Source: a virus. Taken from it: 64,000 nt of DNA. Both the position numbers and the translations under genes were made by a program. This document shows, one piece after another, positions 13,659 to 33,586 of this stretch (its first letter is position 1; each line of letters starts with the position of its first letter). The stretch lies in IMG/VR virus record IMGVR_UViG_2843860951_000002, positions 16,041-80,040 of that record. One strand, written 5' to 3'. The notes under the pieces were generated by a model. The model saw only the letters and a program-made list of their open reading frames with translations. It did not search any database and was not told the DNA's origin.

Positions 13659-14048
13659 TCAGATCACCACGCGATTTGCAGAACGCAGGCCGGGGCCCGG
13701 CGGCACACCAAGAAACTGGCACAATTGCCGCCGCCACCGATTAAACAGGCCCATCCTGTCCTGCACTTCGTTCTTGTTGTGCGTCCACACAGCAGCCTGA
13801 TCCGTATCCAGATTGTCGCTGGCAGTCAGAATGGCCGTTTCCAAACTGGCAATGTCTTTCACATATTGTCGCACTTGTGCGACTTCGGCATCAGCAAGGT
13901 TACGCAGACGCCATTCATTGAAGCCATATACCCGAAAGAAGCGCCAAGACTGCTGGCTGCTGTTAATGCCGCCCATTGCGGGATAGCCCATGAAGCGGCG
14001 TACCGTTACAAGTTCATCATCCGTCAAAGGGTCGGTTGCATCTGCCAT
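13659..14048 (-). CDS. Putative head-tail adaptor
   Basis: 129 aa helical protein two genes after the capsid gene (VRRFMGYP; W..N..E...R..LF..WRR.LC.FLGVPPGPGL). Confidence 0.6.
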   Translation of the reverse strand: MADATDPLTDDELVTVRRFMGYPAMGGINSSQQSWRFFRVYGFNEWRLRNLADAEVAQVRQYVKDIASLETAILTASDNLDTDQAAVWTHNKNEVQDRMGLFNRWRRQLCQFLGVPPGPGLRSANRVVI

Positions 14049-14269
14049 TATGCTGTCTCCAGCGGCGCTCCACGAGAACGCAGCAGTTCTATTTCTGCAG
14101 GGTTAGTCACAACCTCCCCTGCGCTCCATTCGAACCGGCCACGATTGAATTCTTCCTCAATGAAGCCAAAAGGCCGCAGAAGCCGCACTGCCTGCACAGG
14201 AGCGGGTTTTTTCTCGTCCTGCGCAGGAGGAACGGCTGGTTTAGCCGCCCCGCGCCGCGCTTGGCTCAT
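14048..14269 (-). CDS. Small hypothetical protein after the capsid gene
   Basis: 73 aa, coupled to the capsid stop codon. Confidence 0.6.
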   Translation of the reverse strand: MSQARRGAAKPAVPPAQDEKKPAPVQAVRLLRPFGFIEEEFNRGRFEWSAGEVVTNPAEIELLRSRGAPLETA

Positions 14270-15348
14270 CAGGCTGTAGCGCCCAGAGATGTTGCGCCAA
14301 GGCTTTCAATCACCACGCCACGCTTAAGGTAGCTGTTGGTCGCCGTGGGAATGATCGTTGTATTGGCCGTCAGGTCAGTTGGCAGAGCAAAGCCACCAAT
14401 CCAAGACCAAGACTGCGCAATGATCTGCCCCAGACGATCCAGCGGCGGACGGGTAACCATCAGCACATCATCAATATGCTCCACCTCACCCGGAAGATCG
14501 GCATATGCCTGCGCCATGTTGGCATAGTCGCCCTCGATCAGCGCACCCGCACCACAGATGATGGCACGATGAATCTGGCCCTGCCCCAGAGACGCCTGCT
14601 GCGGGGCTTCCGTGGTCGGGATAAACCGGATGCCCAGCAGTTCGAACACCTGACCTGTCCGGTATTCATCAGACCCATACTGACCGCGATACAGCAGCTT
14701 GAAATCAGGATCGCGGAATAGGCCGAGAAGCTGGGAGTTGTCGAGAAAGCAGTTGAAGCAACCACCAATCGTCGGAACGTTGTTGTTGCGCAACGCAGCA
14801 ACTGCCCCCAGCATGGTGTCGATGGTCAGGTAATCACCTGTCACCACATTGCCATTGGCGTCTTTGGAGCCCGATGCCAGAAGTCCTGCTGTTGTGGCAC
14901 GACCATTCGGGCGCAGAACCAGAGGTGCAGTTGCGGCAACCACCGCGGCATTCAATGCCGCATCAGTTGTCGCAACATTCTCAGAGAACGTCAGCGTGCC
15001 AGAAATACCGCCCGGTGCATTGCTGACGTTTGTCGCATCCGCAGCAACATTAACCAGCGTATAAGAGCCGGAACCAACGGTAACAGTCATGCCACTGGTT
15101 GCAGAAACCGGGATAACCTGCCCCATGCTATTCATGACGCGCTGGAAACCACGGATATCATCAACCTGAACGGTTGTGCCTGCGGCTGCCAGTGCTGTGG
15201 TTACGCGGGTGTTCCCGCCCAGATACCCACCAACACCACCAATAGCGCCACCGAACAAGGAATTACGCGCCAAACGGTCAAGAGACTGACGGGCGTTAAT
15301 ACCCAGAACCTGTGCATTTTCGACAAACTGGTTCGCAATTCCGACACC
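14269..15348 (-). pseudogene. Major capsid protein, 3' part (codons 106-464 of the restored gene)
   Basis: GVGIANQF..NA..LG..ARQSLD.LARN.LF..GGNTRV continues in frame from ..DLNQVTE (28885-29199) once the insert is removed. Confidence 0.88.
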
Positions 15349-15356
15349 TTCCGTGA
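15344..15356. repeat. Satellite att site, integrase side
   Basis: ACACCTTCCGTGA vs ACACATTCCGTGA at 28880-28892; identical core TTCCGTGA at 15349-15356. Confidence 0.88.
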
Positions 15357-15375
15357 GGGTGTTGTATCCTATATA

Positions 15376-15388
15376 AATCAATAACTTA
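15376..15388 (+). promoter_or_regulatory. IHF-consensus site in the left att arm
   Basis: AATCAATAACTTA matches WATCAANNNNTTR exactly; inverted copy at 28842-28854. Confidence 0.75.
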
Positions 15389-15415
15389 TGTATAAATGTC
15401 GCGGATTTGTTGCAC

Positions 15416-16621
15416 TCAGTCAGTCTCCGGCAGCATCAATGATGCAATCTTTTGTATTTCCGCTTGTTGCTTGTGCTCCGTAAGTAGTGGGTGAGCATAA
15501 CGCTGAAGGGTCATATCAAAAGATGCATGCCCTAGTAATTTAGCTACATCTGTAACTGGCATTCCTCCACCAACCATAGCACTGGCAGCAAAATGCCTTA
15601 GGGCATGGAAATGATAACTAGGTCCTTTTTTCTCGGTCTCTAATCCAGCCCTGATTAAAAGATTACGCCATACTTCATGCATGTCAGCACGTGTGATCCC
15701 TTTGCTTCCTGTTTTGTCATGCATTTTGGAACGTTGCGTCTTGCAGAACAGCAAATTTCGATTATCTGGGATTAGGTGATGATCTAACCAATCAGTAAAT
15801 AACGCGCGTACATGTTGTGGCATTGGCACATCTCTAAATCCGGCGCGAGTTTTGGGGCCCTTTAGTTCATTCAGCGAAGTAAGAGAGTTTCTGATGCGTA
15901 AAATTCCATTCTGTAAATCAACATTTTGAACAGTAATCCCTGATATCTCACCAAATCTGAGTCCACAAAACACAGCGGAATGCACAAAAATCCGTAATTT
16001 CAGCCATGAACGAATAGACACATTTGGCTGCCGTATATCTACTGTCTTTATAAGCTGTTGTATTTGTTCAATAGAAAAAGTCGCGATCTTGTCAGATTCA
16101 CCGCCACGCCAATCTTTCAGCACTGCATCGAAGGGCTGCCCTTTGGCATAACCTCGTTTGATACCGAACTCGCAAACTTGCCTAGCCGTATTTAAGACTT
16201 CGCGTATCGTAACTTTTTTATATCCAGCTTTTGCCATTTTTCTTGCAATGGCATCACCTTCGTTAAAACCTAGATCTTTTTGCAAAATATCGCCGACTAC
16301 GGGGAGTATATGATTACGAATATACCCCTCACGTCCACGTCTATACAGTTCGCCAACACCGTGCCCTGCCTGTGAGCGAAGAATTGCATCGTCTATGAAT
16401 TCTTGAGCAACTCGCTCCATAGTGGCACTTTTCTTATCTGAAACATGCCGCCCCTCTAAAACATCGACCACAATAGACGATCGAAAGAGATCAGCTTCCT
16501 TCTTGAGTTTGAACGATTTTTGCGTTCTATTCCCCATCTCATCGGTATAATCCACTACCCATGCACTACGATTTTTTCCGCCCGTAACCCAATTACGCTT
16601 TCTAACTGATGCTCGTGCCAC
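15416..16621 (-). CDS. int: Tyrosine integrase of the satellite
   Basis: N-terminal arm-binding region; catalytic set GLRFGE, PKT, HALRH, LLGH, QRY present. Confidence 0.95.
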   Translation of the reverse strand: MARASVRKRNWVTGGKNRSAWVVDYTDEMGNRTQKSFKLKKEADLFRSSIVVDVLEGRHVSDKKSATMERVAQEFIDDAILRSQAGHGVGELYRRGREGYIRNHILPVVGDILQKDLGFNEGDAIARKMAKAGYKKVTIREVLNTARQVCEFGIKRGYAKGQPFDAVLKDWRGGESDKIATFSIEQIQQLIKTVDIRQPNVSIRSWLKLRIFVHSAVFCGLRFGEISGITVQNVDLQNGILRIRNSLTSLNELKGPKTRAGFRDVPMPQHVRALFTDWLDHHLIPDNRNLLFCKTQRSKMHDKTGSKGITRADMHEVWRNLLIRAGLETEKKGPSYHFHALRHFAASAMVGGGMPVTDVAKLLGHASFDMTLQRYAHPLLTEHKQQAEIQKIASLMLPETD

Positions 16622-16626
16622 AACTT

Positions 16627-16920
16627 TTATCCTATCCTATTCATTGAATGCTGCCCCTGAGGAACTGCGTTAGACAGTTCCTCATCTATCGACGCACATC
16701 GGCGTTCCATTTCACCGGATAGCCATTCCAGAGCCATGCCCACAGCACTCATGTTGGGGCCGCTTTCTTCCGAACCAGTAAGCATGCCATTGCTCATGGC
16801 CTGAAGGCATATCCCGATGCAGGACAATTCGCTGGTTGCGTCCTGAATGACGCTCAGTCGGTCGGGTGTTGCCACGGGGCTTTTGCGCCGTTGTGGTGCA
16901 GAAGTGTGTTTCTGGCTCAT
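16627..16920 (-). CDS. Small helical-hairpin protein (paralog 4)
   Basis: ALEWLSGEMERRCASI motif; coupled ORF chain upstream of int. Confidence 0.6.
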   Translation of the reverse strand: MSQKHTSAPQRRKSPVATPDRLSVIQDATSELSCIGICLQAMSNGMLTGSEESGPNMSAVGMALEWLSGEMERRCASIDEELSNAVPQGQHSMNRIG

Positions 16921-17177
16921 GCCTTTACCCCTGTAAGTGCCAGAACATCCCTCGCCAGACTGGCTTCCATACTTCTGTCATCTTCGGACACAAGAAGAAC
17001 CAGACGGGCCTTACATTGCATATCCTTGATGTTCCGGGCTTTGGTGTTCGCAACAGCGCGACAGGCCTTCACGAAGCGACGGCTTTCCGTTTCTCCTTCC
17101 TTGAAATTATGAGCTTTCCAGCTACGGCGATCAGAATTGATGGCGGCGACCGTGGCGGCTTGTATTGGAGTGGTCAT
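16917..17177 (-). CDS. Small hypothetical protein
   Basis: Start MTTPIQ, overlapping neighbours at both ends. Confidence 0.6.
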   Translation of the reverse strand: MTTPIQAATVAAINSDRRSWKAHNFKEGETESRRFVKACRAVANTKARNIKDMQCKARLVLLVSEDDRSMEASLARDVLALTGVKA

Positions 17178-17440
17178 GCCACTTCCTCCGGCAACATCCA
17201 GCCTGGCGCATCTTTCACGCCTGTATGCGCTGCCAGCAGATCCAGATGATCCTGCAACCGGTGGCTCAACCAATGGAGCGCTTCGGGTTCGGTGATGTCG
17301 CATTCATCACAGCTCCATCCGGCTGTCACTTCCACTATAATGGCGGCCATCATCCGTGCGTCACGCAAAATGCAGCTTTGGATACGCATGTTTTTGAAGG
17401 TTTCCTGTTCGAAACCTGTGAGAGACATCTGGTTGCTCAT
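17174..17440 (-). CDS. Small helical-hairpin protein (paralog 3)
   Basis: ALHWLSHRLQDHLDLL motif. Confidence 0.6.
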   Translation of the reverse strand: MSNQMSLTGFEQETFKNMRIQSCILRDARMMAAIIVEVTAGWSCDECDITEPEALHWLSHRLQDHLDLLAAHTGVKDAPGWMLPEEVA

Positions 17441-17676
17441 TTCTGCGGCCTCCACGTCTCGCCGCCAGTAACTTCCTGCAGACGACTTAGCGTTGAGCAG
17501 AGTTCATCTGCCAGCCAGTGCCGGACTTCGGGAAAGACCACTTCATTTTCTGGATGGCTCAAGTCATGGATAGCGCGTGCAATTTGCTCGGCCTTATGAA
17601 GCAAAAGGTGCGGTTTCTTATAGTTGGCAAGATGATCGCGTTCGGCCTCTGTCATGGCTGTAGGTGTGTTGCTCAT
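17437..17676 (-). CDS. Small helical-hairpin protein (paralog 2)
   Basis: VRHWLADELCSTLSRL motif. Confidence 0.6.
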   Translation of the reverse strand: MSNTPTAMTEAERDHLANYKKPHLLLHKAEQIARAIHDLSHPENEVVFPEVRHWLADELCSTLSRLQEVTGGETWRPQK

Positions 17677-17882
17677 TATCGGGCACCTCGCGCCTTAAGG
17701 TCTTCCAGAATGGCGCCATCAAGTTCGTGGTGCAGACGCTCCACCCATTTGTGCAGCCATTCTAATGGCGGACGCTCTCCGCAAGCTTGTAAGCCATCCA
17801 ACACGTCAGACAGGCCCGCCAGCTCACACATGACGCTATGAGCTTTATGATTGAGAGAATTATCCGTTGGCATCTTGCTCAT
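17676..17882 (-). CDS. Small helical-hairpin protein (paralog 1)
   Basis: PLEWLHKWVERLHHEL motif. Confidence 0.6.
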   Translation of the reverse strand: MSKMPTDNSLNHKAHSVMCELAGLSDVLDGLQACGERPPLEWLHKWVERLHHELDGAILEDLKARGAR

Positions 17883-18058
17883 CGTACAGCCTCCAGCTTC
17901 TGGGCTGCGTGGCCAGTTACGACAGGATCAGGCATTGCTGCCCATATCAGGGCTAGCACAGCAAGAACTGGGAAAATCAAAGGTGGTAAATTTCCCCACA
18001 CAGGGGAAAAAATGAATGTACAGGCGCGAACCCGTACGCTATGGGCGTGTTTAGCCAT
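17879..18058 (-). CDS. 59-aa single-TM protein, missing from the ORF track
   Basis: MAKHAHSVRVRACTFIFSPVWGNLPPLIFPVLAVLALIWAAMPDPVVTGHAAQKLEAVR; GAGG RBS; ATGA overlap with 17882. Confidence 0.55.
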   Translation of the reverse strand: MAKHAHSVRVRACTFIFSPVWGNLPPLIFPVLAVLALIWAAMPDPVVTGHAAQKLEAVR

Positions 18059-18140
18059 TAGCTTGTGTCCTCAAGTTTGTGGTCAGGTCTGCTCTGGAAA
18101 TCTCACCTTCCAAAGCAGACCGTTTGGCTTTCCAACCAAA

Positions 18141-18159
18141 GTCAGTTATAAAGACTGAC
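18141..18159. promoter_or_regulatory. Candidate operator of the satellite XRE regulator
   Basis: GTCAGT-N7-ACTGAC inverted repeat in the divergent promoter region. Confidence 0.5.
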
Positions 18160-18186
18160 ATTGTATAAAGTCAAGTGTGAGAACTA

Positions 18187-18426
18187 ATGTCAGACATAAC
18201 ATCTGAGCAATGCCTCGGAGCCCGAGCAATGCTGCGTATGACACGCAATGAATTGGCAGAGGCATCAGAAGTAGCCGTTGCTACATTATCTGACTTTGAA
18301 TCTGGAAAGCGATCACCTCACCCCCGCACCCTTGGCGCCATTCGCTCCGCCTTAGAAGCCGCGGGTATTGAATTCATTACTAAAAATGACAAGGGAGTTG
18401 GATTACTATTGAAGTATAAAAAATAA
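18187..18426 (+). CDS. XRE-family HTH regulator (satellite repressor candidate)
   Basis: Q..GARAML.MTR.ELAEASEVAVATLSDFESGKRSP; divergent from the int-linked operon. Confidence 0.9.
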   Translation: MSDITSEQCLGARAMLRMTRNELAEASEVAVATLSDFESGKRSPHPRTLGAIRSALEAAGIEFITKNDKGVGLLLKYKK

Positions 18427-18530
18427 TACTTGTTTTTAATAAGATATATTCAGAATTTATCTATGGTTATAATTTTAAAACCGTTTTTAATCTCAATTGA
18501 TATAGACACAAAAATTTAGGATGCACTTTT

Positions 18531-19028
18531 ATGAACTTACGTCAGAAAATAAACGCCCAAGCCACACAAAAGGACGCAGAAGAGGCGTTTGAAAATAGTA
18601 GACCGGAAAGAGAACAGGCAATCCGTTCTCAAATGGATTTCTTAATAAAAAAAATTGAATCATTTTTAACTGAATATATTAGAGAAGGGCACGTAAAAAT
18701 AGATTTCTCTACTTCAATTTATAAAATGGATGGCACAGAACATACTGCGATGCCTTCGTTAATAATTAATTTCCCAAAGGAAGAACTTATTCTGGTGTTG
18801 GATAATGAGCACGGTGCTGCCTCATACAGACTCTCTGCAACACTACGCCACCAACCGTTCACGAGAAACCCGCGAAAAGTGAAATTTCTTTTCAAAAACA
18901 ATTCGTGGCTCCTAAACGGAAAGCTTGTTCCTTCTGATGGCGGCTATGCTTTTTTTCAGGACAATCACAACACTGTAGAGATTACCCCAGACAGCCTAAA
19001 TTGCGCTATTGCATCCATTCTAGCGTGA
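18531..19028 (+). CDS. AT-rich hypothetical cargo protein
   Basis: 165 aa, opposite strand to the structural genes, AT-rich. Confidence 0.65.
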   Translation: MNLRQKINAQATQKDAEEAFENSRPEREQAIRSQMDFLIKKIESFLTEYIREGHVKIDFSTSIYKMDGTEHTAMPSLIINFPKEELILVLDNEHGAASYRLSATLRHQPFTRNPRKVKFLFKNNSWLLNGKLVPSDGGYAFFQDNHNTVEITPDSLNCAIASILA

Positions 19029-19076
19029 AAACATAAATATGTGACGAGATTACCTATCTCGTCACATAACCCCAAT

Positions 19077-20420
19077 TTACCGAGCGAGGCTAAAGCGTTT
19101 GCTTGAAACCCAGCGAGCAGGCACAGGCCGGCTTTCAACCATAAGTTCCGTGAGCCCCCAAACCAAAGCGTCCATTCTGTCTGGGGAATTTCCTGATCCA
19201 GGCACCCATTCCACCATTTGATCTTCAAGGGTGGGAAAAGCGCCGACATGATGCACTTTTTCCTGCTCGTATAGTGCCATAATAGGTTCTGCCCTAACGA
19301 GCTTCCCCCGACTGGCATGCACGACTTTTACAGGTACAGTGCCGTCTTCACTGTGAATTGTTGCTGTAACCATCTCGCCGCCGAAATTGTTTTCAGCCAC
19401 AATTTTATCAGCGTTCCAGTGTTTATATGCCCGAACTGCTTGGCGAGCCCACCCGCCAGGGCTGTAACGGCCAGACAAATCCTCCAGAATGTATCCTTTG
19501 TTATCGGTACCGTAGGCGCAGACGATAATGCCAGTTTCATCAGACCTTTCATGAGATGATCCTGCTGGATCTATAGCAATAACGATTCGCCTGAATATCC
19601 GGTCTGATGATGGTTCAACACGAAGCGCATCCAGCATTTCACGAGTCCAGAGAGTTCCGCTTCCATCATCCAGTAATTCACCATCAAGTTCTTGCCTGCC
19701 CAACGTTGTGCCGCCGTATTTTTCCATAAGCTGGGCTAGAGCTGTACGGCTCAAATTCGCTGCATTATCCTGCGTCCGTGAACGTGTCACGACCGTCAAA
19801 TCACTCTTGGCCAGAGAACGAATAAGAGGAATCGGCTTTGGCGTAGTGGAGCACACAATTCTCGGTGCATCTCCCAGAGGACCATCTACGCGGATTGCCA
19901 TACTGAGCACGTCCCAAGCGTACTCACATTTTCCCCACGTTACGATTTCGTCGCACCATGCGCCATCAAGATTCAGGCCGCGTAATCGTTCCGGTTCTTC
20001 TGCTGAACATAGATGGCAAAGGGCTCCGTTTGGATACAACAATTTCCCTGTGGACGGCTCATAAGTAGGCCTGAACTCAGGCGGAGATATCGCCAGCATT
20101 CCACTAGGGCCTTCAATTTGAACACGGCGAAGGGCATTGGCCGTGGGGCCAACGATTGCCATTTCCTTCCGGCGCCCGCTTTCAATCTCACCACGAACCC
20201 ATTCAGCAGCGGTTCTCGTTTTCCCGCTGCCTCGTCCGCCGAGCAAGAGCCAGACAAACCAGTCACCTGCCGGTGGCAACTGGTCTGGACGAGCCCAGAA
20301 AGACCAGACGTAATGAAGCGCAGCCAGTTCTTCGGATGAAAGTGAACTGAGAACAGCACGGCGTTCATCAGGTGGCAGATCTGCCACCCGTGAAGCTAAA
20401 GATATTTTCAGATCGTCCAA
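19077..20420 (-). CDS. terL: Terminase large subunit of the satellite
   Basis: WARPDQLPP..W.VWLLLGGRGSGKT (Walker A), AWCDEI (Walker B), IAIDPA nuclease motif, DRMDALVW. Confidence 0.93.
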   Translation of the reverse strand: MDDLKISLASRVADLPPDERRAVLSSLSSEELAALHYVWSFWARPDQLPPAGDWFVWLLLGGRGSGKTRTAAEWVRGEIESGRRKEMAIVGPTANALRRVQIEGPSGMLAISPPEFRPTYEPSTGKLLYPNGALCHLCSAEEPERLRGLNLDGAWCDEIVTWGKCEYAWDVLSMAIRVDGPLGDAPRIVCSTTPKPIPLIRSLAKSDLTVVTRSRTQDNAANLSRTALAQLMEKYGGTTLGRQELDGELLDDGSGTLWTREMLDALRVEPSSDRIFRRIVIAIDPAGSSHERSDETGIIVCAYGTDNKGYILEDLSGRYSPGGWARQAVRAYKHWNADKIVAENNFGGEMVTATIHSEDGTVPVKVVHASRGKLVRAEPIMALYEQEKVHHVGAFPTLEDQMVEWVPGSGNSPDRMDALVWGLTELMVESRPVPARWVSSKRFSLAR

Positions 20421-20920
20421 GCGTCTCTCCGGCGTTCAATCTCTGCCATGATTTCTTTTTTGCGAGGCATCACTACTCGCCTGTCTTGTTCTGTCAGTTT
20501 GGCTGCTGGAAACAGAATAAGATTTCCAGGGTGAATAACTTCAAACGAAATTCCCTTGGCCATCAGCCTTTCGACTAGATCAGAAATACTTTCATGAGAT
20601 TGCTGCCGTTGGTCAGGGCTTGCATTCGTAAAGGTTGCATTCGCAAATACGATTGCAGCTAATTCGTTCTCAGGAGCATTTCGTACAGAAATAAAGAATA
20701 CTTCTGCTTCTTTCATTTCTTTATCATATTGCTCTTTAGCCATTTTTGCCCGAACAGCATCCCCTGAATGCTGCTCACGATAATAAATTCCCATCCTTTG
20801 CCGGAGAAGATTAAAACGTGGATCCAATACACGAAAGAGGTCGTGTCCACGTGCGCGCGCCTCTTTGTAGGCGATTGCTACCCTATCTTCGATTGAGAGA
20901 TTCGCATTTAGCTGCGTCAT
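20408..20920 (-). CDS. Hypothetical helical protein
   Basis: 170 aa, overlaps both neighbours. Confidence 0.6.
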   Translation of the reverse strand: MTQLNANLSIEDRVAIAYKEARARGHDLFRVLDPRFNLLRQRMGIYYREQHSGDAVRAKMAKEQYDKEMKEAEVFFISVRNAPENELAAIVFANATFTNASPDQRQQSHESISDLVERLMAKGISFEVIHPGNLILFPAAKLTEQDRRVVMPRKKEIMAEIERRRDAWTI

Positions 20921-21192
20921 TTTTTGCTACCCCATTTTTTTGCCCATTTTTGCAAAGACCGCGAATTAATGCTGTCGCGCATATTGCTCTGGATATCAGC
21001 GTTGATGCGCTTCAGTTGTTTTTTGCATTCTTCTTCGGATGCCATGCGTGCGTTGAATGTAAACGCATCTGGATACCTGTCCTGCAAACAAGAAACTGCT
21101 TGTTCAGGAGAGAGATTTTCATCAGCAATTTTTAGTAAAGTCATATCGTTCAGGCCCGCTTTGATAGCGGCCTGCTCTAATTTTGTGCACAT
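20917..21192 (-). CDS. Mini scaffold-like protein (homolog of the helper scaffold C-terminal domain)
   Basis: LEQAAIKAGLND..LLKIAD..AV..LQDRYPDAF-TFNARMASEEE vs helper AKALATKLGAVSPDDVVRLID..VMDAAKESRGYLF..PFNARKATPEE. Confidence 0.6.
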   Translation of the reverse strand: MCTKLEQAAIKAGLNDMTLLKIADENLSPEQAVSCLQDRYPDAFTFNARMASEEECKKQLKRINADIQSNMRDSINSRSLQKWAKKWGSKK

Positions 21193-21255
21193 GATTTTCT
21201 CTTATAAGTAAGATTATTACTCAAGGAATAGGCTTAATTAAAAGCTTACCCCTGC

Positions 21256-21384
21256 CAATCATCACCAGCCCGGAACACCCGGCACCCGTGGCGTTGAAAG
21301 TGGATCTGGCATAGCATTACTTGCCCGCATTTCGCGGTCATAATCCTTCCTAACCACACTTTGCACATGCCCGGCGATCTGCTT
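21256..21384. repeat. 129-bp perfect direct repeat, copy 2 (3' end of satellite TMP gene)
   Basis: Identical to 4391-4519; similarity extends 9 bp further with two synonymous changes. Confidence 0.97.
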
Positions 21385-23349
21385 GCCGTCTAGATTCACA
21401 GTTACATTTATAGGTGCAGTTCCAAATAACCCTCCTGAGTATTTACCTAAAAACCCATCAATACTTTTTAATGTTTCATTGTTTTTTTCTAAGCTAGCTT
21501 GGAGTTTGTTCGCCCAAGGTGAGAGCACATCCCACGCAGCAAGGCCTGCAGCTAGCGGCATAAATCCTTTAGACGCTCCTTTAGTAACTGTGCCGAATTT
21601 CGACATTCCACTCGGAAGGTATTTTTCAAGAGCGCCACCTACCCAATGGAAGAACCCCACAGCTAAGGCTGTAACGCCTAGATCTACGCCGGCTGTTGCT
21701 AGAGGGGGCACAACATTGGGGTGTTTTTCCGCCTGCCGAGCAGTAAAATTCAGAGTATTGGTTAAAAGTCCCAGTGCGGCCAAACCATCTTTGAAGGGTT
21801 TATCTCCTAAGACAGTTGTGAGGTTTTTAATCGAAGCCGTAAACGCATCAATTTGAACAGACGGAGAATTCTTCATAATACCAACAATATCAGCATGAGA
21901 AAGCTTGCCAGTAGCTGAAGAATCTCGCTCAGCAAGAAGGTAAGTTCGCAGAGTCTCAATCATACTCACGCCTCCTGGAATGCGAGAAGCAACCTGAGAA
22001 AGGCCTTTTGCTTCCATAGCTAATTTCATTTCCGGCGAAGCATCAGTAAATTTTTTCCCATACACCTTAGCCATATATTTATCGATTTTAGGTTTGAGCG
22101 TTTTCTCAATAAATTCATGCGGCGAGAAAATAATCTTAGCCATGTCGTCTGGATCAAGTGCCCCATCCAACATCATGAACTGGCCCATGCCCATTTTCCG
22201 CAAATATTTGTTCGATTTAGCATCACCACCACCATGGATGATTCCCATATCGATCAACATATTTGCTCCTGCCTCTGACATTCTCCCCGCCATAAATTGC
22301 TGAGAAAACCCCTGAAGGCCGGTTCCTGCCCTTGCGGTCCCCATCGACTGAAGTAGTGGAATAAACCATGGCAAATCCTCAGCTTTAAGGGTTGCACCCG
22401 CTGCGCCCGCTGAACGACTAAATTGCAGATATTTCTTGAAATCAACATTTCCCAAAGTGGCAACTTCAGCAGCTAATAACAGAGTACCTAGATTCCGGGC
22501 GCCCTCCACATCCACTTCTTGTTTGCCGGTTTTTTTATCTGTTTTAACTAGAGCTCCACGAAATTCGGCTAGCTGCATAAGGGACTCAAGCTGTGCTGCA
22601 TAATTACCAGACTCAGGATGGTAAGCCCCTGCGGCAATGCCAATTGGTAGGAATGTCGGTAACAAAGTACGAGCTTCAGAAGCACTTTGAGTTATCCGTT
22701 TAAGAACAGAGTATACTTCCAAGTTCCCCATGACATCTGAACCGGCAACTTTCTTTTGAAGGTCCCGAGCCAAAACAATCGCTTTGTCAGCATCCTTAGT
22801 ATCTCCGCCATCATTAGCAATAAGGCGCTGCCGCATTTGCTGAAGATCCATAGCTGGCCTCAAAGCAGTCTTCGCCATATCTCCATACATCTGAAGATCA
22901 AACCCAACTGCCATGGCTTTATTAGCCGCATGTCCAAAGGAGGTCTCTGGCCTCCCAGGGACCCTTCTTCCCTCAGGCTCGGGAGTTAAAGGGGGTTTGG
23001 GCGAAGGGAGAGGAACCTCACTCGGCACCGACACCTTAGGATTTATAATCTGTACTTTCCGCAATTCCTCAAGAGCCTTACGAGCAGAACCCGCAGAAGA
23101 CGTAATATTATCCAGAGACGCCGACATTGTTCTTGTCTGGCTATCAATTCCTCCCAGATTGATACCTTCAATTTCTTTTAACTGCCTGCCAAGGCGAGAA
23201 AGATTGGCACGCCCTAAGGCCTCGAGAAGACTCCTAAGATCATTCCCTGCATCTAATGTCATGCGGAATTGACGCGCGATCTCTTTCAGTAACGCCGGCG
23301 CATTTGAAACAAGTTTATACTCGCCTTGGACTGCATAGCTTGTCGTCAT
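21262..23349 (-). CDS. Tail tape measure protein of the satellite, 695 aa
   Basis: Follows chaperones and a gp10-like gene; N-terminus MTTSYAVQGEYKLV resembles helper MTVEAYKIGVSLV; last 43 aa identical to the helper TMP. Confidence 0.85.
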   Translation of the reverse strand: MTTSYAVQGEYKLVSNAPALLKEIARQFRMTLDAGNDLRSLLEALGRANLSRLGRQLKEIEGINLGGIDSQTRTMSASLDNITSSAGSARKALEELRKVQIINPKVSVPSEVPLPSPKPPLTPEPEGRRVPGRPETSFGHAANKAMAVGFDLQMYGDMAKTALRPAMDLQQMRQRLIANDGGDTKDADKAIVLARDLQKKVAGSDVMGNLEVYSVLKRITQSASEARTLLPTFLPIGIAAGAYHPESGNYAAQLESLMQLAEFRGALVKTDKKTGKQEVDVEGARNLGTLLLAAEVATLGNVDFKKYLQFSRSAGAAGATLKAEDLPWFIPLLQSMGTARAGTGLQGFSQQFMAGRMSEAGANMLIDMGIIHGGGDAKSNKYLRKMGMGQFMMLDGALDPDDMAKIIFSPHEFIEKTLKPKIDKYMAKVYGKKFTDASPEMKLAMEAKGLSQVASRIPGGVSMIETLRTYLLAERDSSATGKLSHADIVGIMKNSPSVQIDAFTASIKNLTTVLGDKPFKDGLAALGLLTNTLNFTARQAEKHPNVVPPLATAGVDLGVTALAVGFFHWVGGALEKYLPSGMSKFGTVTKGASKGFMPLAAGLAAWDVLSPWANKLQASLEKNNETLKSIDGFLGKYSGGLFGTAPINVTVNLDGKQIAGHVQSVVRKDYDREMRASNAMPDPLSTPRVPGVPGW

Positions 23350-23354
23350 TATTG

Positions 23355-23816
23355 TTACTCTTTCAGGCCAGCTATTTCTGTGATTTTTTTTGCAATTTTC
23401 TTTGTAATACTGTGTTCTTTGCGGAATAACGCTGTCGCGATAACTGGACGCGGAGGCTGTTTCATCGTTCCTTCTTCAAACCATTTTGCCACCACATCGG
23501 GATTCCCAATAATCACCTTTGACCCATCTTCAATATAAGATGAATAAAGCGCTCGCATCTCACCTGTTCGCAAGCCCGGTTCATTTTCGGAAAACCCGCG
23601 GGCTAACCTATCCTGTTTGGTACTGATAGCCAGTTCATCCCAAGGGGGAAGGTGACCCATATTTGCCCTTTGGTAGGTACCTACTTCTTCTTTGCAATCA
23701 GCAACAAGCAATATGGCGGCTTTTTCCAAGGCAATCAGTTGCGCTCGTTCTACCACCTCTGGAATTTTTTCCATTTGAGACAAAAAACTTTGTTCACTAA
23801 GCGGATTAGCCGCCAT
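23355..23816 (-). CDS. HK97 gp10-like tail component (satellite copy)
   Basis: ELA.STK..RLARGFSENEPGLRTGEMR, FEEGT.KQPPRP; homologous to 8039-8545; start at MAANP mirrors the helper overlap. Confidence 0.72.
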   Translation of the reverse strand: MAANPLSEQSFLSQMEKIPEVVERAQLIALEKAAILLVADCKEEVGTYQRANMGHLPPWDELAISTKQDRLARGFSENEPGLRTGEMRALYSSYIEDGSKVIIGNPDVVAKWFEEGTMKQPPRPVIATALFRKEHSITKKIAKKITEIAGLKE

Positions 23817-24006
23817 CACTATTGCGCCTATGAAAGCGCCCCTCTCCCAAACTCCATTCGATTTCACCACATGAATCAAGTTCTTTGTTCATAATGCATG
23901 CAGCTGAAATCATCTCGTCTGACCATGTATCAAGAACATGGATGGGGATCCCATTCCGGGCGAGATAAACCAACGCCCGGAAGTTAGGATCCCTTAGGAA
24001 TTTCCC
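23806..24006 (-). CDS. Satellite tail chaperone -1 frameshift extension, missing from the ORF track
   Basis: Slippery G GGA AAT (24000-24006); -1 frame GKFLRDPNFRALVYLARNGIPIHVLDTWSDEMISAACIMNKELDSCGEIEW..DGG* is homologous to the helper extension. Confidence 0.8.
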   Translation of the reverse strand, partial: GKFLRDPNFRALVYLARNGIPIHVLDTWSDEMISAACIMNKELDSCGEIEWSLGEGRFHRRNSDGG

Positions 24007-24425
24007 AGCTTTTCTTCTGGAGCCTCCTGCGTCTTGGCTTGACCTCCGGCTATATCTTCAACAAGCGCTCGCATGTAGGCTTGCTGTCCTATATTCCCGA
24101 TCTTATCCAAAAGATCGCAAATTTCACTTTTGCTCTCTGGGGTCATTTCAGGCTCGCCATCAAGGTCAACAACTGAAACCGCCATCATGACTGCAAAGCT
24201 CACATCGTCATTCTGGATGTTACCCCACATGTCTAAGGCCCTCACCCGTAAACTTAACGGGATAGATTTAAGGAATTGGATCTCCCTTCCTTTTTTATCC
24301 TCTTCAAATTTAACCGTAATACAAGAAGGTTTTTTTCCTCCAATTTTATACTTTGCAGGCCCTTCTTCCCACGAAAAGCCAGCGATTTTAGGGAGTTTAT
24401 CTTTGGAGGTCTTTTCTTTTGTCAT
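23994..24425 (-). CDS. Tail assembly chaperone (satellite copy)
   Basis: MMAVSVVDLDGEPEMTPESKSEICDLLDKIGNIG vs helper MVCSVTAIDGVPVQMPITKDEVKELANDIGNDG. Confidence 0.78.
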   Translation of the reverse strand: MTKEKTSKDKLPKIAGFSWEEGPAKYKIGGKKPSCITVKFEEDKKGREIQFLKSIPLSLRVRALDMWGNIQNDDVSFAVMMAVSVVDLDGEPEMTPESKSEICDLLDKIGNIGQQAYMRALVEDIAGGQAKTQEAPEEKLGNS

Positions 24426-24625
24426 TTGCGGGGCCCTGCTTTATCAGAATGATTATTAAAAATATTACATGACGGGGAAACTTCGTAAGCAGCTCCATAT
24501 GGGATAGGGATACCAGATATCCGGGCGCTGTTATTCTGGCACCCAATCACGATGTATGCCGCGCTACGGGCTGGCTCAATTGGCTCTGCTGTAGCAATAG
24601 TTTCAAGAGTGTCTCGTGAAAACAT
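24422..24625 (-). CDS. Small hypothetical protein
   Basis: GGAGG RBS, ATGA coupling to the chaperone gene. Confidence 0.55.
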   Translation of the reverse strand: MFSRDTLETIATAEPIEPARSAAYIVIGCQNNSARISGIPIPYGAAYEVSPSCNIFNNHSDKAGPRK

Positions 24626-24642
24626 TGTCCCTCCGTGGACAT

Positions 24643-24666
24643 AAAAAAACCCGCTGTAAAGCGGGA
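24643..24666 (-). terminator. Intrinsic terminator upstream of the satellite tail module
   Basis: CCCGC-TTTACA-GCGGG followed by a T7 run on the minus strand. Confidence 0.65.
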
Positions 24667-25095
24667 TTAAAAACTAACTTTTGCATCTGTTCGTTCAGGC
24701 GGATCTAGTAAATCCGCATAACAAAAAGTGCCCGGCAATATGGTGAAGGGGCCGCCAACATACGTGATTCCTTCTCCGCCTTTCAGGTCTGTTAAGTAGG
24801 CGACCTGCCCAGGGGGAATTGTCTTATTCCCTGTGCCAGTTTCAAAGCCATTTACTGGTGGAGATAGCTGAAGCTGCGGCGCTTCTGGATTTCCGGGGGT
24901 GTAAAATAGTGTCAGATTACCTTTACCACCATTACGGATTGCCATGACTGCGGCATCCTGTAGCTGATCAGGTACCGTGATAGTAGCTGTCCCGCAGATG
25001 GGAGCAGCGGGCACAGCCATCGCGCCACTTACGCCGCCTGGTGCATCTGGATAAGCACTTGGATTTTGTGATGTCGTGATAAACAATCTTTTCAT
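24667..25095 (-). CDS. Hypothetical Pro/Gly-rich, beta-rich protein
   Basis: Start MKRLF with AAGGA RBS; no family recognised. Confidence 0.6.
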   Translation of the reverse strand: MKRLFITTSQNPSAYPDAPGGVSGAMAVPAAPICGTATITVPDQLQDAAVMAIRNGGKGNLTLFYTPGNPEAPQLQLSPPVNGFETGTGNKTIPPGQVAYLTDLKGGEGITYVGGPFTILPGTFCYADLLDPPERTDAKVSF

Positions 25096-25106
25096 ATCGT
25101 TTCCTT

Positions 25107-25769
25107 TTATTCGCTGGACAAAACTCCAGATACCGCTTTGGCTGTCCACTTCCCTCCACGGGGAGTGCGGACAGATCGCTGGTCAAGTTCGTTCGCGATA
25201 GTTTGCAAACTCATTCCTTGGCCGCGCAATTCCTTGATCAGAGGGCGAACAGAAGCCCGGAACTCTTCTTTTTTCCGTCTCACAGCTGCTGTGCCGGCTT
25301 TCTGATCCACTTTTGGGCCGCCTCTATAACCACCTAGCTTAACGCCACGTGCCTTGGCAGCAGCCAACGCCTCTTTCGTGCGCTGGGATATGGCTTCCCG
25401 TTCTTGTTGGGCCACAAGCGCCATAATCCCTATAGTCATCTGATTGGCGCCGGGCATATCTGCGGCGACGAAATTGATGCCTGCGTCTTTTAAGCCGATA
25501 AGGAATGCAGCGTTACGAGAAAGCCGGTCGATTTTGGCTATGACAAGCGTTGCACCTGTCAGACGACATTCTTTCATGGCCAATTCTAATTGAGGACGGG
25601 CATCATTCTTCCCAGTTTCAATTTCAGTGAATTCGGCCAGCAATTCCCAATCACCGCCATTTAGGAAATTTCGGACAGTGTGCTGCTGTGCCTCTATTCC
25701 AAGACCAGATTTTCCTTGTTTTTCAGTGCTTACGCGGTAGTAGGCGACAAATTTTCCGTTCATGTTCAA
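25107..25769 (-). CDS. Serine recombinase (resolvase/invertase family)
   Basis: FVAYYRVSTEKQ, DRLSR, ERE.IS.RTK.AL..AKARG, C-terminal helical DNA-binding region. Confidence 0.93.
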   Translation of the reverse strand: MNMNGKFVAYYRVSTEKQGKSGLGIEAQQHTVRNFLNGGDWELLAEFTEIETGKNDARPQLELAMKECRLTGATLVIAKIDRLSRNAAFLIGLKDAGINFVAADMPGANQMTIGIMALVAQQEREAISQRTKEALAAAKARGVKLGGYRGGPKVDQKAGTAAVRRKKEEFRASVRPLIKELRGQGMSLQTIANELDQRSVRTPRGGKWTAKAVSGVLSSE

Positions 25770-25798
25770 ATCCAGACGACGAAGGTTGTCTGATTTTG

Positions 25799-26227
25799 CT
25801 ACGGACTTTTCTCACTATTTGCAATCGTTTTTTTTGTCTCATTTTCTGGCTCAAGATCAATTACTGGCTTCTGTTGCGGTTTGAATGCTTCCAGCATCTG
25901 ACTGATCTTTTCTACCATGTGTGTACCAGAGACTTCCTGCTGACCATCCTTTGGCGTTGCATCCGCTGTAACCTGCATGGAAAGCCTTGGCCGACAATAT
26001 GGAAGTGCTGCTTGATAAGCTTTCACGCGCAATTCTAAGGGCGTTTCTGGACTGTCAGCAATTTCCAGCAGCGAAAGAAGCGGATCTCGGCCTTCTTCCA
26101 TAATCTGCACCAATGTCTGCCGCGCTTTAACCATAACTTTTTGTGGTCGTTTGCTCTGCCACTCAGCACCTGATTTACGGCCAGCGCCTTTACGCTTTCC
26201 TCCTGAGCCGCTCGAGGTTCCTGGCAT
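25799..26227 (-). CDS. terS: Putative terminase small subunit of the satellite
   Basis: GGKRKGAGRK..., DPL..LLEIA....PLELRVKAYQAALPYCRPRL, a motif I associate with small packaging subunits. Confidence 0.55.
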   Translation of the reverse strand: MPGTSSGSGGKRKGAGRKSGAEWQSKRPQKVMVKARQTLVQIMEEGRDPLLSLLEIADSPETPLELRVKAYQAALPYCRPRLSMQVTADATPKDGQQEVSGTHMVEKISQMLEAFKPQQKPVIDLEPENETKKTIANSEKSP

Positions 26228-26417
26228 TCAATACTCCTATTTCCCCCGATCTTGGGGTTTCACGCACGCGCTGCGCGCAGAAGCCAGAATGCTCCTACGC
26301 CAACGGGCGGGGCAAGCGGGGCTATGCACAGCCTCGCGCCTGATTTGATTATAACGGGGCTGGCAGTTGGCAACGCATGCCCAATTCACCTATGCAGAAT
26401 TCCTAAACACTGGAAAC

Positions 26418-26535
26418 TTTGCACGGAACTGCACGGAACCCGCACGGGTGAGTGATCCGCACGCACGGATCATCTCCCCTATAGGGTTCCGAGATCCATG
26501 CGCGCGCGGATTTGCACGGAACCTGCACAGATCAT
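26418..26535. repeat. Candidate satellite replication origin
   Basis: GCACGG at 26421, 26431, 26442, 26463 and 26514; hairpin TGATCCG-N6-CGGATCA; palindrome CCCTATAGGG; directly after the helicase gene. Confidence 0.6.
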
Positions 26536-27740
26536 TCCTCCCCTCCTCCATCAGTCCAAACTACACAGGAAGGCTTTCCATCGGGGGTTCGTATTCCCTG
26601 AGCAGTACCTCGGTTATCACGCCTAAATGTCGCCACCTCATATCCCTCGTGGAGTAGATCGTTCAGAACCTTCTTCTGCCCATCAGCCGTGCTTACGCCA
26701 CAGTCAGTCAAAAGCTTCCTGATAGACCGTTGATCTTTTGACAATTTAGGGCTCCAAGGGCCTACAGGACTTCCTTTCGCGACCCCTGCTTCAATAAGGT
26801 TCATTTGCTCCAATGAGACGCTATCCTGCGGAGGCATCCATGGCTTCATGACTGCCACTCGGTCACCATTATTTAGTTCGTAAGACTGCCGTTCAAACCA
26901 TTCTTCCTTGCCGATCGGAGCCGCATTGATCTTGGCCCCATCGACGCGAGAGAAGAACCGCCTATGGTCAGCCGGTAACCCAAAGTTTTGTGCTTCTGCT
27001 TCTGACATAACACTAACCGTCAACACTACGCGGGCGGCACCAACAACGGCAGATGCACCTCGGGACACGTCAGGATCTCCTGGAATGGCAGCTACTCCTT
27101 TCCGTGTATGATGCAAGAGAACGACGGCCATATCATACCGCACAGCCAAGGCACGGAAATGAGCCATTACCTTGCGAACTGCAGTATTGTCGTTTTCTTC
27201 TGCTTCATGCAATTCAACCAACGGATCCAGCATCAACACATCGGGCCTGCGCTTTTGGATTTCAGCTTCCATTTGTTTCATTGCCGGAGTGTCAAACATC
27301 TCTTTGCTATCTTTCTCCTGCTCAAGCAACGTTCCGATAGTCTCCGTGCCTACGCGGGCAACATACCCATTCAAATCTGCCGGGCACTTACCCATGAACC
27401 GCAAAGCAGCAGAGAACCGCCGACGCTGTTCGTCACGATCATCCTCAACATTGTAAGTCATGACCTTCATGCGCTTATCTGGGGTCAATCGCCCATAGCT
27501 CTCTCCTAGTGCAAGAGACGCTGCCCATCCCACCATTAGGCTTGACTTCCCCGAAGCAGGTGCACCCACCACAACAGTGACAGCACCACGCAGGAGGATC
27601 CCAGAAGCTACCCAAGGGCGGGAGGGAATATCGTTTTCGTCCCAGTTCTGATCATCTATTACAAGAGGGAGAACAGGCGTATGCTGCTTATTCTGCGCTT
27701 CAATTACGCTTTGGTGGACAATTTCTCCGATTTCATTCAT
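26532..27740 (-). CDS. RepA-like replicative helicase (AAA_25 type)
   Basis: Walker A GAPASGKS, NVED, LMLDPL, LLHHTRKG, SRGASAVVGAAR. Confidence 0.88.
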   Translation of the reverse strand: MNEIGEIVHQSVIEAQNKQHTPVLPLVIDDQNWDENDIPSRPWVASGILLRGAVTVVVGAPASGKSSLMVGWAASLALGESYGRLTPDKRMKVMTYNVEDDRDEQRRRFSAALRFMGKCPADLNGYVARVGTETIGTLLEQEKDSKEMFDTPAMKQMEAEIQKRRPDVLMLDPLVELHEAEENDNTAVRKVMAHFRALAVRYDMAVVLLHHTRKGVAAIPGDPDVSRGASAVVGAARVVLTVSVMSEAEAQNFGLPADHRRFFSRVDGAKINAAPIGKEEWFERQSYELNNGDRVAVMKPWMPPQDSVSLEQMNLIEAGVAKGSPVGPWSPKLSKDQRSIRKLLTDCGVSTADGQKKVLNDLLHEGYEVATFRRDNRGTAQGIRTPDGKPSCVVWTDGGGEE

Positions 27741-28519
27741 CCACCCATCCTTGCCCTCAACGCAGATGCGATGGTCTTTTCAACTTCAGTTGCACTTAGG
27801 CCTGCTTCTAACCCAGCAGCCGCCATGACAACTGCAATTTCATTGGCTGATAGATAACCTTCGGCAATGAACCTTCCTAATGCAAAGGTTTCGGCATTAA
27901 GAGTTTGATTTCTTAACCCATTGCCTGCGGTAGCAACCTGCCGAGCAGCTGAACGAAGAGCAGATTGGACATAGCGATTTGCGTTTTCTATGCCGTGTTG
28001 CAATCTTTCAAGTTTAGGTTTGGGAGGTGGCGAAGGTGTTGCAAGTTCTACTAGCCATGCCGGCCATTGCTGGATGCGAGCACGCTCAACTATCTCTAGC
28101 CCAGCCGCAGGCCACCAAATGATATATCCTCCATCAGCCCTAACATCCACGCCCGGCGCTATCCGGCCGGCACTGTTCCTCATGCCTTCTCGGTGCCTGA
28201 ACAATAAATGAAGCCCCCCAGAACGGGTGCGATTAATCCGGGTGCCGGTCAGTCGGGCGCAGTGTTCTTGGTAAAAATCGTCACCACCCTTTCCCCAGTC
28301 CAGATCAAGTGCATCAAACCCAGACACAGAACCTGTAACTGCTCCAATAAGAGCCCCTGGATGAGCGCGCCAGAGCATGGCAACAGTTTCCGGGCATTTG
28401 CTCGACAATTTAGTCCATTTGCAAGTAGGTCGCTTCTGCTCATCACAGGGGAATACCTGTACCCCGCAGCGCGCTAATTGTTGGGCATAGACCACAACAG
28501 AACCATTTGCCGTAGTCAT
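27737..28519 (-). CDS. Bifunctional primase/polymerase (Prim-Pol) with primase C-terminal region
   Basis: VFPC..KRP, ALDLD, RTRSGGLHLLF, GVDVRADGGYI, GLRNQTLN..F.LGR; start MTTANG by ATGA overlap. Confidence 0.88.
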   Translation of the reverse strand: MTTANGSVVVYAQQLARCGVQVFPCDEQKRPTCKWTKLSSKCPETVAMLWRAHPGALIGAVTGSVSGFDALDLDWGKGGDDFYQEHCARLTGTRINRTRSGGLHLLFRHREGMRNSAGRIAPGVDVRADGGYIIWWPAAGLEIVERARIQQWPAWLVELATPSPPPKPKLERLQHGIENANRYVQSALRSAARQVATAGNGLRNQTLNAETFALGRFIAEGYLSANEIAVVMAAAGLEAGLSATEVEKTIASALRARMGG

Positions 28520-28716
28520 GACTGCCCCGCTTCGCAGTTTTTCAACCACTGGCGCAGCGTTTCAGGTCGCGCACAAATAGTCTTCCCAATACGAAAGCAT
28601 GGGATACGCCCCTGCTCATTCCAATAGGCAACTTGACGAGGAGATGTGCCGAGGAACTCCGCAATCGCTCTCGTCCCTGCTAGAATTTCGACAGAGAAAG
28701 TAACACTATTTTTCAT
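28516..28716 (-). CDS. AlpA/excisionase-like winged-HTH protein
   Basis: G.RAIAEFLG.SPRQV.YW...GRIP.FRIGKTICAR...L.QWL; first gene inside the right att. Confidence 0.8.
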   Translation of the reverse strand: MKNSVTFSVEILAGTRAIAEFLGTSPRQVAYWNEQGRIPCFRIGKTICARPETLRQWLKNCEAGQS

Positions 28717-28841
28717 GTCGCAGTTTGCCTGATATTTGTCGCATGCATGCAGCACGGAAATGCCGTGCATTGTCGTAACTCCTTGGTTTTCATCGTTCTT
28801 ATCGAACAGAGCGAATAGGCAAGAAATCTCACGACATTTTT

Positions 28842-28854
28842 TAAGTTATTGATT
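28842..28854 (-). promoter_or_regulatory. IHF-consensus site in the right att arm
   Basis: TAAGTTATTGATT, reverse complement of 15376-15388. Confidence 0.75.
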
Positions 28855-28879
28855 TTGTTATAATTATTGAAGGATATAA

Positions 28880-28892
28880 ACACATTCCGTGA
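28880..28892. repeat. Satellite att site, xis side
   Basis: ACACATTCCGTGA; core TTCCGTGA at 28885-28892. Confidence 0.88.
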
Positions 28893-29199
28893 CCTGATTG
28901 AGGTCCATCGTGTTACCGAACTGCGCAATTTCCAGCGTGTACTGTTCCACAGACCATTCCGTGGGAGACATGCCGTTATCGAAATTGCTGTTGGCCGCGG
29001 GATTGAGCGGAGTTTCAACCGGAGCCAGCAAACCACGACGGGTGTCCGTAATGGTCTGACCGATACGAGCCGGAAATTCCATGCGGTCAGCAACGGAACG
29101 AAAGCCAAGTTTGGATTCAAGGCTGGCTTCAAACGCACGGGCCAGAAAGCCCTGCTGGATAATGGGTTGTAGTGCTGCGGGGAAATCGGCAATTGCCAT
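28885..29199 (-). pseudogene. Major capsid protein, 5' part (codons 1-105)
   Basis: MAIADFPAALQPIIQQGFL.R.F...L..KLGFR..ADR.EF..IG.TIT.TR; follows the scaffold gene; frame diverts into element sequence (CVYILQ*) right after the att core. Confidence 0.9.
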
Positions 29200-29279: not shown

Positions 29280-29924
29280 TTAGGAGGGTGTAAAAAGTTT
29301 GGGGTTAAGCCCTGCTGCCTGCGCTTTGGCTGCCACTTCTTCTGGCGTTGCCTTACGCGCATTAAACGGTTCAGCCTTACCCGGCTTAGGGTCTGGCGCT
29401 GTTTTGGTGGTGCCGGTTTTGGTGCCGGGTTCAACGAGTTGAGTGAACAGATAGCCACGGCTTTCTTTCGCTGCGTCCATCACAGCATCCAGCCCTTCGA
29501 TCTGCCCATTCTCGCCCATCTTGACCTCAGAAAGATCAATCAGCCGCACCACATCATCGGGAGAAACAGCGCCCAGCTTGGTTGCCAGCGCCTTGGCTTC
29601 TGCCCGAATGACGGCCTGATCCGCTTGCGCCTTGGACTGCGCGACTGCCGTTTGCGCCTCAGTCTTCGAAGCTTCAACGGCCTGCTGTGCCTCAGCCAGC
29701 TTACCTTCAAAGTCGGACTTCTGCTGCGCAAGCTGCCCTTTGAAACCATCACGGGCTTTAATGGCCGCATCACGCTCAGCGCGCACTGCATCCCCATCTT
29801 CCCGCGCGGCCTTAAGTTCATTGCGCAAAGTCACAATGTCAGCACGCGCACGCGCCAATTCACGCGGCGTGTTAGGGTCAGCACCACCGTTCCCAGCATC
29901 AGCCGGGTTTGCATTGTCGGACAT
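29280..29924 (-). CDS. Capsid scaffolding protein
   Basis: Ala-rich coiled coil plus C-terminal D.VRLIDLS.VK..E.G.I.GLDA.M...KE.R.YLF; lies between portal and capsid genes. Confidence 0.8.
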   Translation of the reverse strand: MSDNANPADAGNGGADPNTPRELARARADIVTLRNELKAAREDGDAVRAERDAAIKARDGFKGQLAQQKSDFEGKLAEAQQAVEASKTEAQTAVAQSKAQADQAVIRAEAKALATKLGAVSPDDVVRLIDLSEVKMGENGQIEGLDAVMDAAKESRGYLFTQLVEPGTKTGTTKTAPDPKPGKAEPFNARKATPEEVAAKAQAAGLNPKLFTPS

Positions 29925-33442: not shown

Positions 33443-33586
33443 ATCCAACACTCCAGAATGAAAAATGCGCTTCCTGCCTTAACGCTGCTAATTTAAGGCG
33501 GCACGTTTTACCCATGCCGTTGACCAATACCTACTACACGGGAGCCAACGGTTAGAGAGAACAGGATTGCGATGTGCGCTACATCG

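Follow-up and report, generated by a model that had tools for sequence, protein, structure and literature searches.

A satellite terminase embedded in an Acetobacter prophage ends in a peptide matching the C-terminus of its helper's terminase, a candidate prohead-docking tail

The locus described here raises the question of how a packaging motor encoded by a satellite could come to fill proheads built by its helper. The window, a 64,000-nucleotide stretch of viral DNA, carries two large terminase subunits (TerL), one belonging to a satellite and the other to the prophage that hosts it. According to the original prediction, the satellite TerL ends in a peptide resembling the C-terminus of the helper TerL, the two motors differ in type, and the helper-type tail was acquired.

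The host element of the satellite is an Acetobacter prophage, and the helper has a sheathed tail. The satellite has the following features.

15357–28879, minus strand: helper-embedded satellite, 13.5 kb (delimited by empty sites in relatives)
15416–16621: tyrosine integrase
19077–20420, minus strand: satellite TerL (TerL1), 447 aa, Terminase_6N/6C type (Pfam and PHROG)
19077–19121, minus strand: satellite TerL tail PARWVSSKRFSLAR plus stop codon (translation)
20408–20920, minus strand: putative small terminase (TerS), a 170-aa ORF overlapping the TerL start (assigned by position alone)
21262–23349: tape-measure-like protein, 695 aa
26532–27740: AAA_25 helicase
27737–28549: Prim-Pol

An Xis-like HTH protein is also encoded. 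Five related IMG/VR prophages (L178–L181 and L183) run colinear with the window down to 28880 and continue from there at 15356, the two sides overlapping by 13 bp. Their junctions are empty sites with an uninterrupted capsid gene; in the window, the satellite is integrated within the major capsid gene of the helper. The nested layout recurs in a Logan contig (L095), whose satellite TerL is 98% identical, and in Acetobacter ghanensis (L096 and L262), where it is 72% identical. The terms satellite and helper are therefore justified by the gene content, the empty sites and the recurring layout. No portal or capsid gene was found among the ORFs of the island (15357–28879). The 695-aa protein was considered as a hidden portal and rejected, as it is tape-measure-like. 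The putative TerS has no match in Pfam, PHROG or the PDB and only a weak atlas lead; the same ORF lies upstream of TerL in L095 and L096.

Several other observations concern the island and its site. In A. ghanensis (L096/L262), the related satellite is located about 100 bp further 5′ in the same capsid gene, and L261 is the same A. ghanensis helper lacking the satellite. An ORF of about 220 aa with a serine-recombinase (Resolvase) N-terminal domain lies in 25107–25769 and 24667–25149 (minus strand) and is conserved in the satellite copies of L095 and L096, where its length is 218 aa; short ORFs with this domain are found directly upstream of TerL in the related islands L343 and L345. A 143-aa satellite protein (23994–24425, minus strand) and a helper protein (8714–9037, minus strand), the latter encoded downstream of the sheath and tube genes, both belong to phrog_20383, which suggests that the satellite has its own tail chaperone-like gene.

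The helper contributes the head module and its own terminase.

32969–33451, minus strand: small terminase (phrog_309, E 2e-59)
31489–33024, minus strand: helper TerL (TerL2), 511 aa as translated, phrog_2/phrog_5902 type (PHROG)
31489–31533, minus strand: helper TerL tail PARFVTNKRFSLSR plus stop codon (translation; recombination boundaries at 31533 and 31547)
29972–31489, minus strand: portal of the "portal X" family (phrog_145; 59% identical to the phiKX1 portal)
29280–29924, minus strand: scaffolding protein (phrog_194; Pfam Phage_scaffold on the L095 orthologue)
28880–29199, minus strand: 5′ part of the major capsid gene, approximately aa 1–107 (77% identical to phiKX1 coat protein aa 1–109)
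14269–15356, minus strand: 3′ part of the major capsid gene (79% identical to phiKX1 coat protein aa 101–462)

Here, phiKX1 is a Komagataeibacter phage. The helper portal sequence has no match in the PDB, and its AF2 model (pLDDT 80) adopts the SPP1 gp6/80alpha portal fold, with a putative clip at residues 269–314 that is poorly ordered in the model. An adaptor-like head-completion protein of 129 aa (13659–14048, minus strand; phrog_14539) has a C-terminus, PPGPGLR..NR(I/V)VI, that is kept across portal-X phages and may later fill the portal clip. The possibility that the TerL tail mimics this adaptor C-terminus was rejected, since the two peptides are unlike.

The two motors have different bodies. 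The ATPase half of the satellite TerL matches PF03237 (E 4.5e-19), and an RNaseH-like nuclease domain is recognized at residues 281–424 (PF17289, E 6.5e-17). In alignment A1, its motifs GGRGSGKT and WCDEI fall in the invariant columns G62–T68 and D157/E158; the protein retains every invariant position of the Walker A and Walker B motifs and of the nuclease, including the acidic positions D284, D338 and D414/D417. The helper TerL matches phrog_2 and phrog_5902, whereas the Pfam search gave no family for it, and its motifs are GHGVGKS and IEEAS, so that the difference in ATPase motif type is as originally described. Its true start is probably an ATG 12 codons in, by comparison with the 499-aa P0126. 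The top BLASTP local match between the two proteins covers the C-terminal 36 aa (53% identity, E 2e-4), and the sole other match below E 0.01 is a nuclease-half stretch with 22% identity (E 0.002); little is shared outside the tail.

The satellite protein ends ..RPVPARWVSSKRFSLAR and the helper protein ends ..VKAPARFVTNKRFSLSR, as translated from 19077–20420 and 31489–33024, respectively. The span first assigned to the resemblance, 19077–19130, takes in the final 17 codons of the satellite TerL and its stop codon; the common peptide itself comprises 14 residues, followed by the stop (19077–19121 in the satellite, 31489–31533 in the helper). It occupies the extreme C-terminus, beyond the nuclease fold, in a variable segment. 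In family B, to which the satellite TerL belongs, the tail begins directly after the conserved helix SPDR.DALVW..TEL, and in family C, that of the helper TerL, directly after RSPD.ADAL..TF. A hairpin at about 19040–19075 follows the satellite gene.

The resemblance of the two ends, evident from translation and BLASTP, was also borne out by tail scores. We compared 491 TerL tails, taken from both TerL families and from retrieved loci, using a gapped BLOSUM62 score. The satellite and helper tails are reciprocal best non-self matches in this set. They score 53 against each other, while the next best score of the satellite tail is 35; the top non-self matches of the helper tail are satellite tails (53–57), and its next best reaches 42. 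Against the 201 helper-family tails, the satellite tail has a median score of 12 and a 95th percentile of 23, and the score of 53 is attained only by the helper's own orthologues. The satellite tail also resembles the sub-variant of its own helper more closely than it resembles any of about 120 tails of its own family. The match is far beyond chance.

Recent gene conversion does not account for the match. Only 24 of 42 nucleotides are identical between the two tails, the codons differ at 8 of the 10 identical residues, and blastn of the island against the remaining window matches the tape-measure 3′ end only, with no nucleotide similarity between the tails. The codon differences and the blastn outcome thus indicate that the peptide is conserved at the protein level, without recent copying. 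The tape-measure match comprises 152 bp at 96% identity (satellite 21256–21407, helper 4391–4542; the helper tape measure spans 4397–6718); it is a second C-terminal module matching the helper, one that, in contrast to the TerL tail, arose by copying of the DNA itself.

The part of the original prediction that fared less well is the acquisition of the tail. The nearest full-length relatives of the satellite TerL are 58–61% identical, and the contexts examined are small islands that encode AlpA or an HTH protein, a primase-helicase, a small ORF product and TerL, with neither a portal nor a capsid gene downstream of TerL. The PARW..N.M.R tail type is present in three of them (L258–L260) and in one JGI contig. 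The contexts and tails of these relatives therefore point to a TerL lineage that is largely satellite-borne and to which the broad tail class is native. Since close relatives are already in the same class, and nucleotide similarity to the helper tail is lacking, descent with fine-tuning is as likely as capture. What the sequences do indicate is a satellite tail fine-tuned to the helper's sub-variant. Other tail classes occur in related islands, YDSSM.WV in L344 and M.IS.. in L345, and in L343 the TerL is accompanied by a DUF4055 portal and ends ..NLPY. It is possible that L258–L260, L344 and L345 belong to a large and so far little-described group of satellites that encode a TerL, with tails of various types. 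The relatives P0018, P0019, P0033, P0017 and P0047 are encoded in L258, L259, L260, L344 and L345, islands that carry an integrase or AlpA.

The same tail class is found on other TerL bodies. The phiKX1 TerL has no BLASTP similarity to either window TerL and, despite this unlike body, ends ..RARLTPTRFNLGR. Twelve Acetobacteraceae genomes with portal X (L002–L013) encode TerL bodies of type A (the phiKX1 type) or type B′, and all of these end in the tail class of the helper and satellite. Type B′ is chimeric and has only its nuclease half in common with the satellite TerL (45% identity over aa 219–447). The B′ proteins of L003, L005, L006, L007, L009, L010 and L013 are encoded just upstream of the portal and end at about 5847–5989; their nuclease halves are 40–49% identical to that of the satellite TerL, and their ATPase halves are without BLASTP similarity to it. 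Four TerL bodies (A, B′, C and the satellite's B) are associated with both this tail class and portal X. The A, B′ and C genes adjoin the portal gene, whereas the satellite's B gene sits inside a portal-X prophage and would act in trans on portal X.

To quantify this association, we used 286 loci of families A, B and C with a complete TerL and a downstream ORF, drawn from IMG/VR, JGI metagenomes and GTDB genomes. We grouped the portals with thresholds of ≥35% identity and ≥60% coverage, as single linkage at E 1e-8 was too coarse. The terminal motif [FLIMVW]xR-COOH is present in 43 of 44 TerLs beside portal X (31 family A, 7 B′ and 6 C) and in 10 of 242 beside other portals (Fisher p 3e-40), in 31 of 32 versus 10 of 191 non-redundant loci (p 4e-28), in 30 of 31 versus 3 of 47 in family A (p 5e-17) and in 6 of 6 versus 1 of 64 in family C (p 5e-8), all p-values being inflated because the loci are phylogenetically non-independent. 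Widespread occurrence of the motif with unrelated portals, named at the outset as a refutation, was thus looked for and not found. Among the ten exceptions, three are satellite-like islands without any portal and three are family-A singletons with ..HM.R tails. Because the tail physically adjoins the portal gene in phages, the co-inheritance could partly reflect linkage.

Other portal clusters have tails of their own, some common to several TerL families; for clusters 5 and 8, ..ELRI, ..KLKF and ..IKGF occur on A, B and C bodies. When TerLs of different families were paired by related portals, their mean tail similarity was 4.07, above every one of 1000 within-family shuffles (−1.96 ± 0.86). 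The homologue lists of the three families are hypervariable after the last conserved helix, and discrete tail types recur in unrelated families: ..AR....h(N/S)hxR, ..V.(K/R)L(P/R)(Y/W), ..M.IS...LAR...GRRR, ..DSS(M/Y)SWV, ..G.GIFE.YRR.. and ..VWERL...

Natural swaps delimit the module. Three loci (L182, L198 and L200) are 92–95% identical to the helper TerL at the nucleotide level from 33061 down to exactly 31547, 19 codons ahead of its stop, where the homology ends; their tail is GPKKAFNFNSILNRI and their portal is from another cluster. L264 presents the reverse arrangement. Ahead of TerS (33974–33597), its identity to the window is about 89%; similarity is absent over TerS and the TerL body, which in L264 is of family A, and homology resumes exactly at 31533, the first codon of PARFVTNKRFSLSR, continuing through the portal, scaffold and capsid genes. 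The replaced TerS and TerL-body cassette corresponds to 31534–33596 in the window and 3445–5269 in L264; one joint lies upstream of TerS, the other coincides with the first codon of the tail, and the two prophages are otherwise about 89% identical. The family-A protein P0249 ends in the exact helper 14-mer. Natural recombination joints therefore fall exactly at the tail boundary; that such recombinants narrow the module down to about 14 residues is new here.

The sub-variants follow the portal at a finer scale. KRFSL is confined to portals that share 91% identity or more with that of the helper, and it occurs on three body types, A in L264, C in the helper and B in the satellite. Portals at most 65% identical to the helper portal are accompanied by ..T(R/N/T)FNLGR and looser variants. 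A second satellite–helper pair, that of A. ghanensis, has the same tail class on a family B body (satellite, SARYVPKPKDFSFGR) and a family A body (helper, PARLTPTRFNLGR), with a looser match than in the main pair. The survey and the swaps show that, on unrelated TerL bodies, this class of tail follows the helper-type head module of portal and capsid gene, and neither the TerL body nor TerS; to that extent the original prediction is supported.

We propose that the best explanation, and a likely one, is that the packaging motor of the satellite carries a prohead-docking tether matched to the helper. About 14 C-terminal residues of each TerL would form this tether and would functionally belong to the head module of portal, scaffold and capsid. 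The satellite would make its own terminase, consisting of TerL and a probable TerS that would recognize satellite DNA, and this motor must then engage proheads built by the helper. It could do so because its flexible tail would offer the same peptide as that used by the helper TerL, P-A-R-aromatic-V-x-x-K-R-F-S-L-x-R-COOH. The portal is favored as the contact of the tail, with the clip as the likely binding site. Physical binding, contact with the portal and a need for the tail in satellite transfer are what we infer from these comparisons.

The portal and the capsid are inseparable as partners in this survey because every portal-X locus has the same capsid-protein family. It is therefore conceivable, though in our judgment unlikely, that the tether touches the capsid ring or hexons at the portal vertex instead of the portal. 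All 40 portal-X loci with enough downstream sequence encode this capsid family at 46–100% identity, and it is more conserved than the portal. Capsid binding has also been suggested in a preprint on a thermophilic phage, where the five TerL tails are proposed to bind the five-fold capsid environment, the speculation being that they bind capsid hexons around the portal (PMC12407722). Conversely, genetic and biochemical work on lambda, T3 and other phages indicates the portal (PMC5389665, PMC9026076). The KRFSL sub-variant tracks a portal subclade at ≥91% identity, and in L011 the capsid protein is 91% identical to that of the helper, the portal just 65%, and the tail is of the TTFNLGR sub-variant, which suits the portal better.

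The tail could alternatively be inherited baggage, the satellite TerL having been captured from a phage of this head type and the peptide having no role in the choice of helper. Its close relatives do end in the same broad class, and in phages the tail and the adjoining portal gene would co-segregate. We nevertheless consider this explanation improbable. The satellite has no adjacent portal gene with which its tail could hitch-hike, and the peptide has been kept even though synonymous sites are saturated. Across the family, the residues that immediately precede the tail are hypervariable. The satellite tail resembles the sub-variant of its own helper more than it does any of the roughly 120 same-family tails, and satellite-like islands with related TerLs bear several tail classes.

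The P22 TerL C-terminus is reported to contact TerS, and the tail could serve such a partner or another function such as auto-regulation of the nuclease, but this is very improbable: the TerS-like ORFs upstream of portal-X TerLs fall into at least six unrelated clusters, which makes TerS an unlikely partner, the helper, the satellite and L264 combine three different TerS-like proteins with one KRFSL tail, and in L264 a single replacement took in TerS and the TerL body but left the tail in place beside the portal. As a TerS-binding element the tail was accordingly rejected, being independent of the TerS cluster.

A prohead-docking tether is in keeping with what is known from model phages. In the lambda TerL, a tether at the C-terminus binds the portal and includes a specificity domain (PMC9026076), and in lambda gpA and T3/T7 gp19 it is likewise a short extreme C-terminal segment, distal to the nuclease domain, that docks the prohead in a phage-specific manner (PMC9026076, PMC5389665). 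The segment of lambda gpA has no sequence relation to the tails described here and is longer (about 32 aa versus about 14 aa). Moreover, the evidence here is comparative, from four unrelated bodies and joints at the first codon of the tail, and not genetic or biochemical as for gpA. The concept of a C-terminal portal-specificity domain is thus already established from lambda. What appears new, from the gene content and tails of this locus, is the use of such a tail by a satellite without a portal of its own.

Among satellites, the closest layout is that of the HE-PICIs, enterobacterial satellites embedded in helper late genes, mostly the capsid gene (Mageeney et al. 2023, PMC10111431). Like an HE-PICI, the present element has an integrase, empty sites and a replication module and lacks capsid and portal genes. 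However, HE-PICIs have lambdoid helpers in enterobacteria and many carry a capsid homologue, whereas the satellite described here resides in Acetobacteraceae, has a sheathed-tail helper and carries TerL, tape-measure-like and chaperone-like genes and no capsid gene. The cfPICIs also encode their own large terminase (PMC10085698), but they have their own capsid, portal and head–tail connectors, the helper supplying tails only, and their TerL docks on their own portal. None of these head genes was found within 15357–28879, and the satellite TerL must therefore use the portal of the helper. Helper proheads are likewise redirected to satellite DNA by SaPI TerS, by PICI Rpp and by PLE acting on the ICP1 terminase (PMC11417361). 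Those elements reprogram or inhibit the helper TerL through a small subunit or an inhibitor, whereas this satellite would supply a complete motor of its own, which has just a 14-aa putative docking peptide in common with that of the helper.

The locus and the natural recombinants together define a minimal specificity determinant of about 14 aa, and evolution treats this tail as part of the head module. The terminase is five-fold and the portal on which it docks is twelve-fold, and what is known of the specificity of this docking comes from a few model phages. The route of hijacking would be unlike redirection by TerS or Rpp, in that a complete motor is brought along and the docking peptide alone is copied.

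There is also an indication, new here, that the tails form a code shared across TerL families. Whether TerL C-terminal tails are a general, transferable address code, shuffled among TerL families and exploited by TerL-bearing satellites, we regard as evenly balanced. If so, recombination at the tail boundary would shuffle a small repertoire of short C-terminal peptides among unrelated TerL families, with each peptide addressing a single portal or head lineage. A large, mostly undescribed group of portal-less primase–TerL islands would then exist, each with a tail of its helper's head type, and the tail alone would predict the helper of a TerL-bearing satellite. If the code is general, it would also allow the rational re-targeting of packaging motors in phage engineering.
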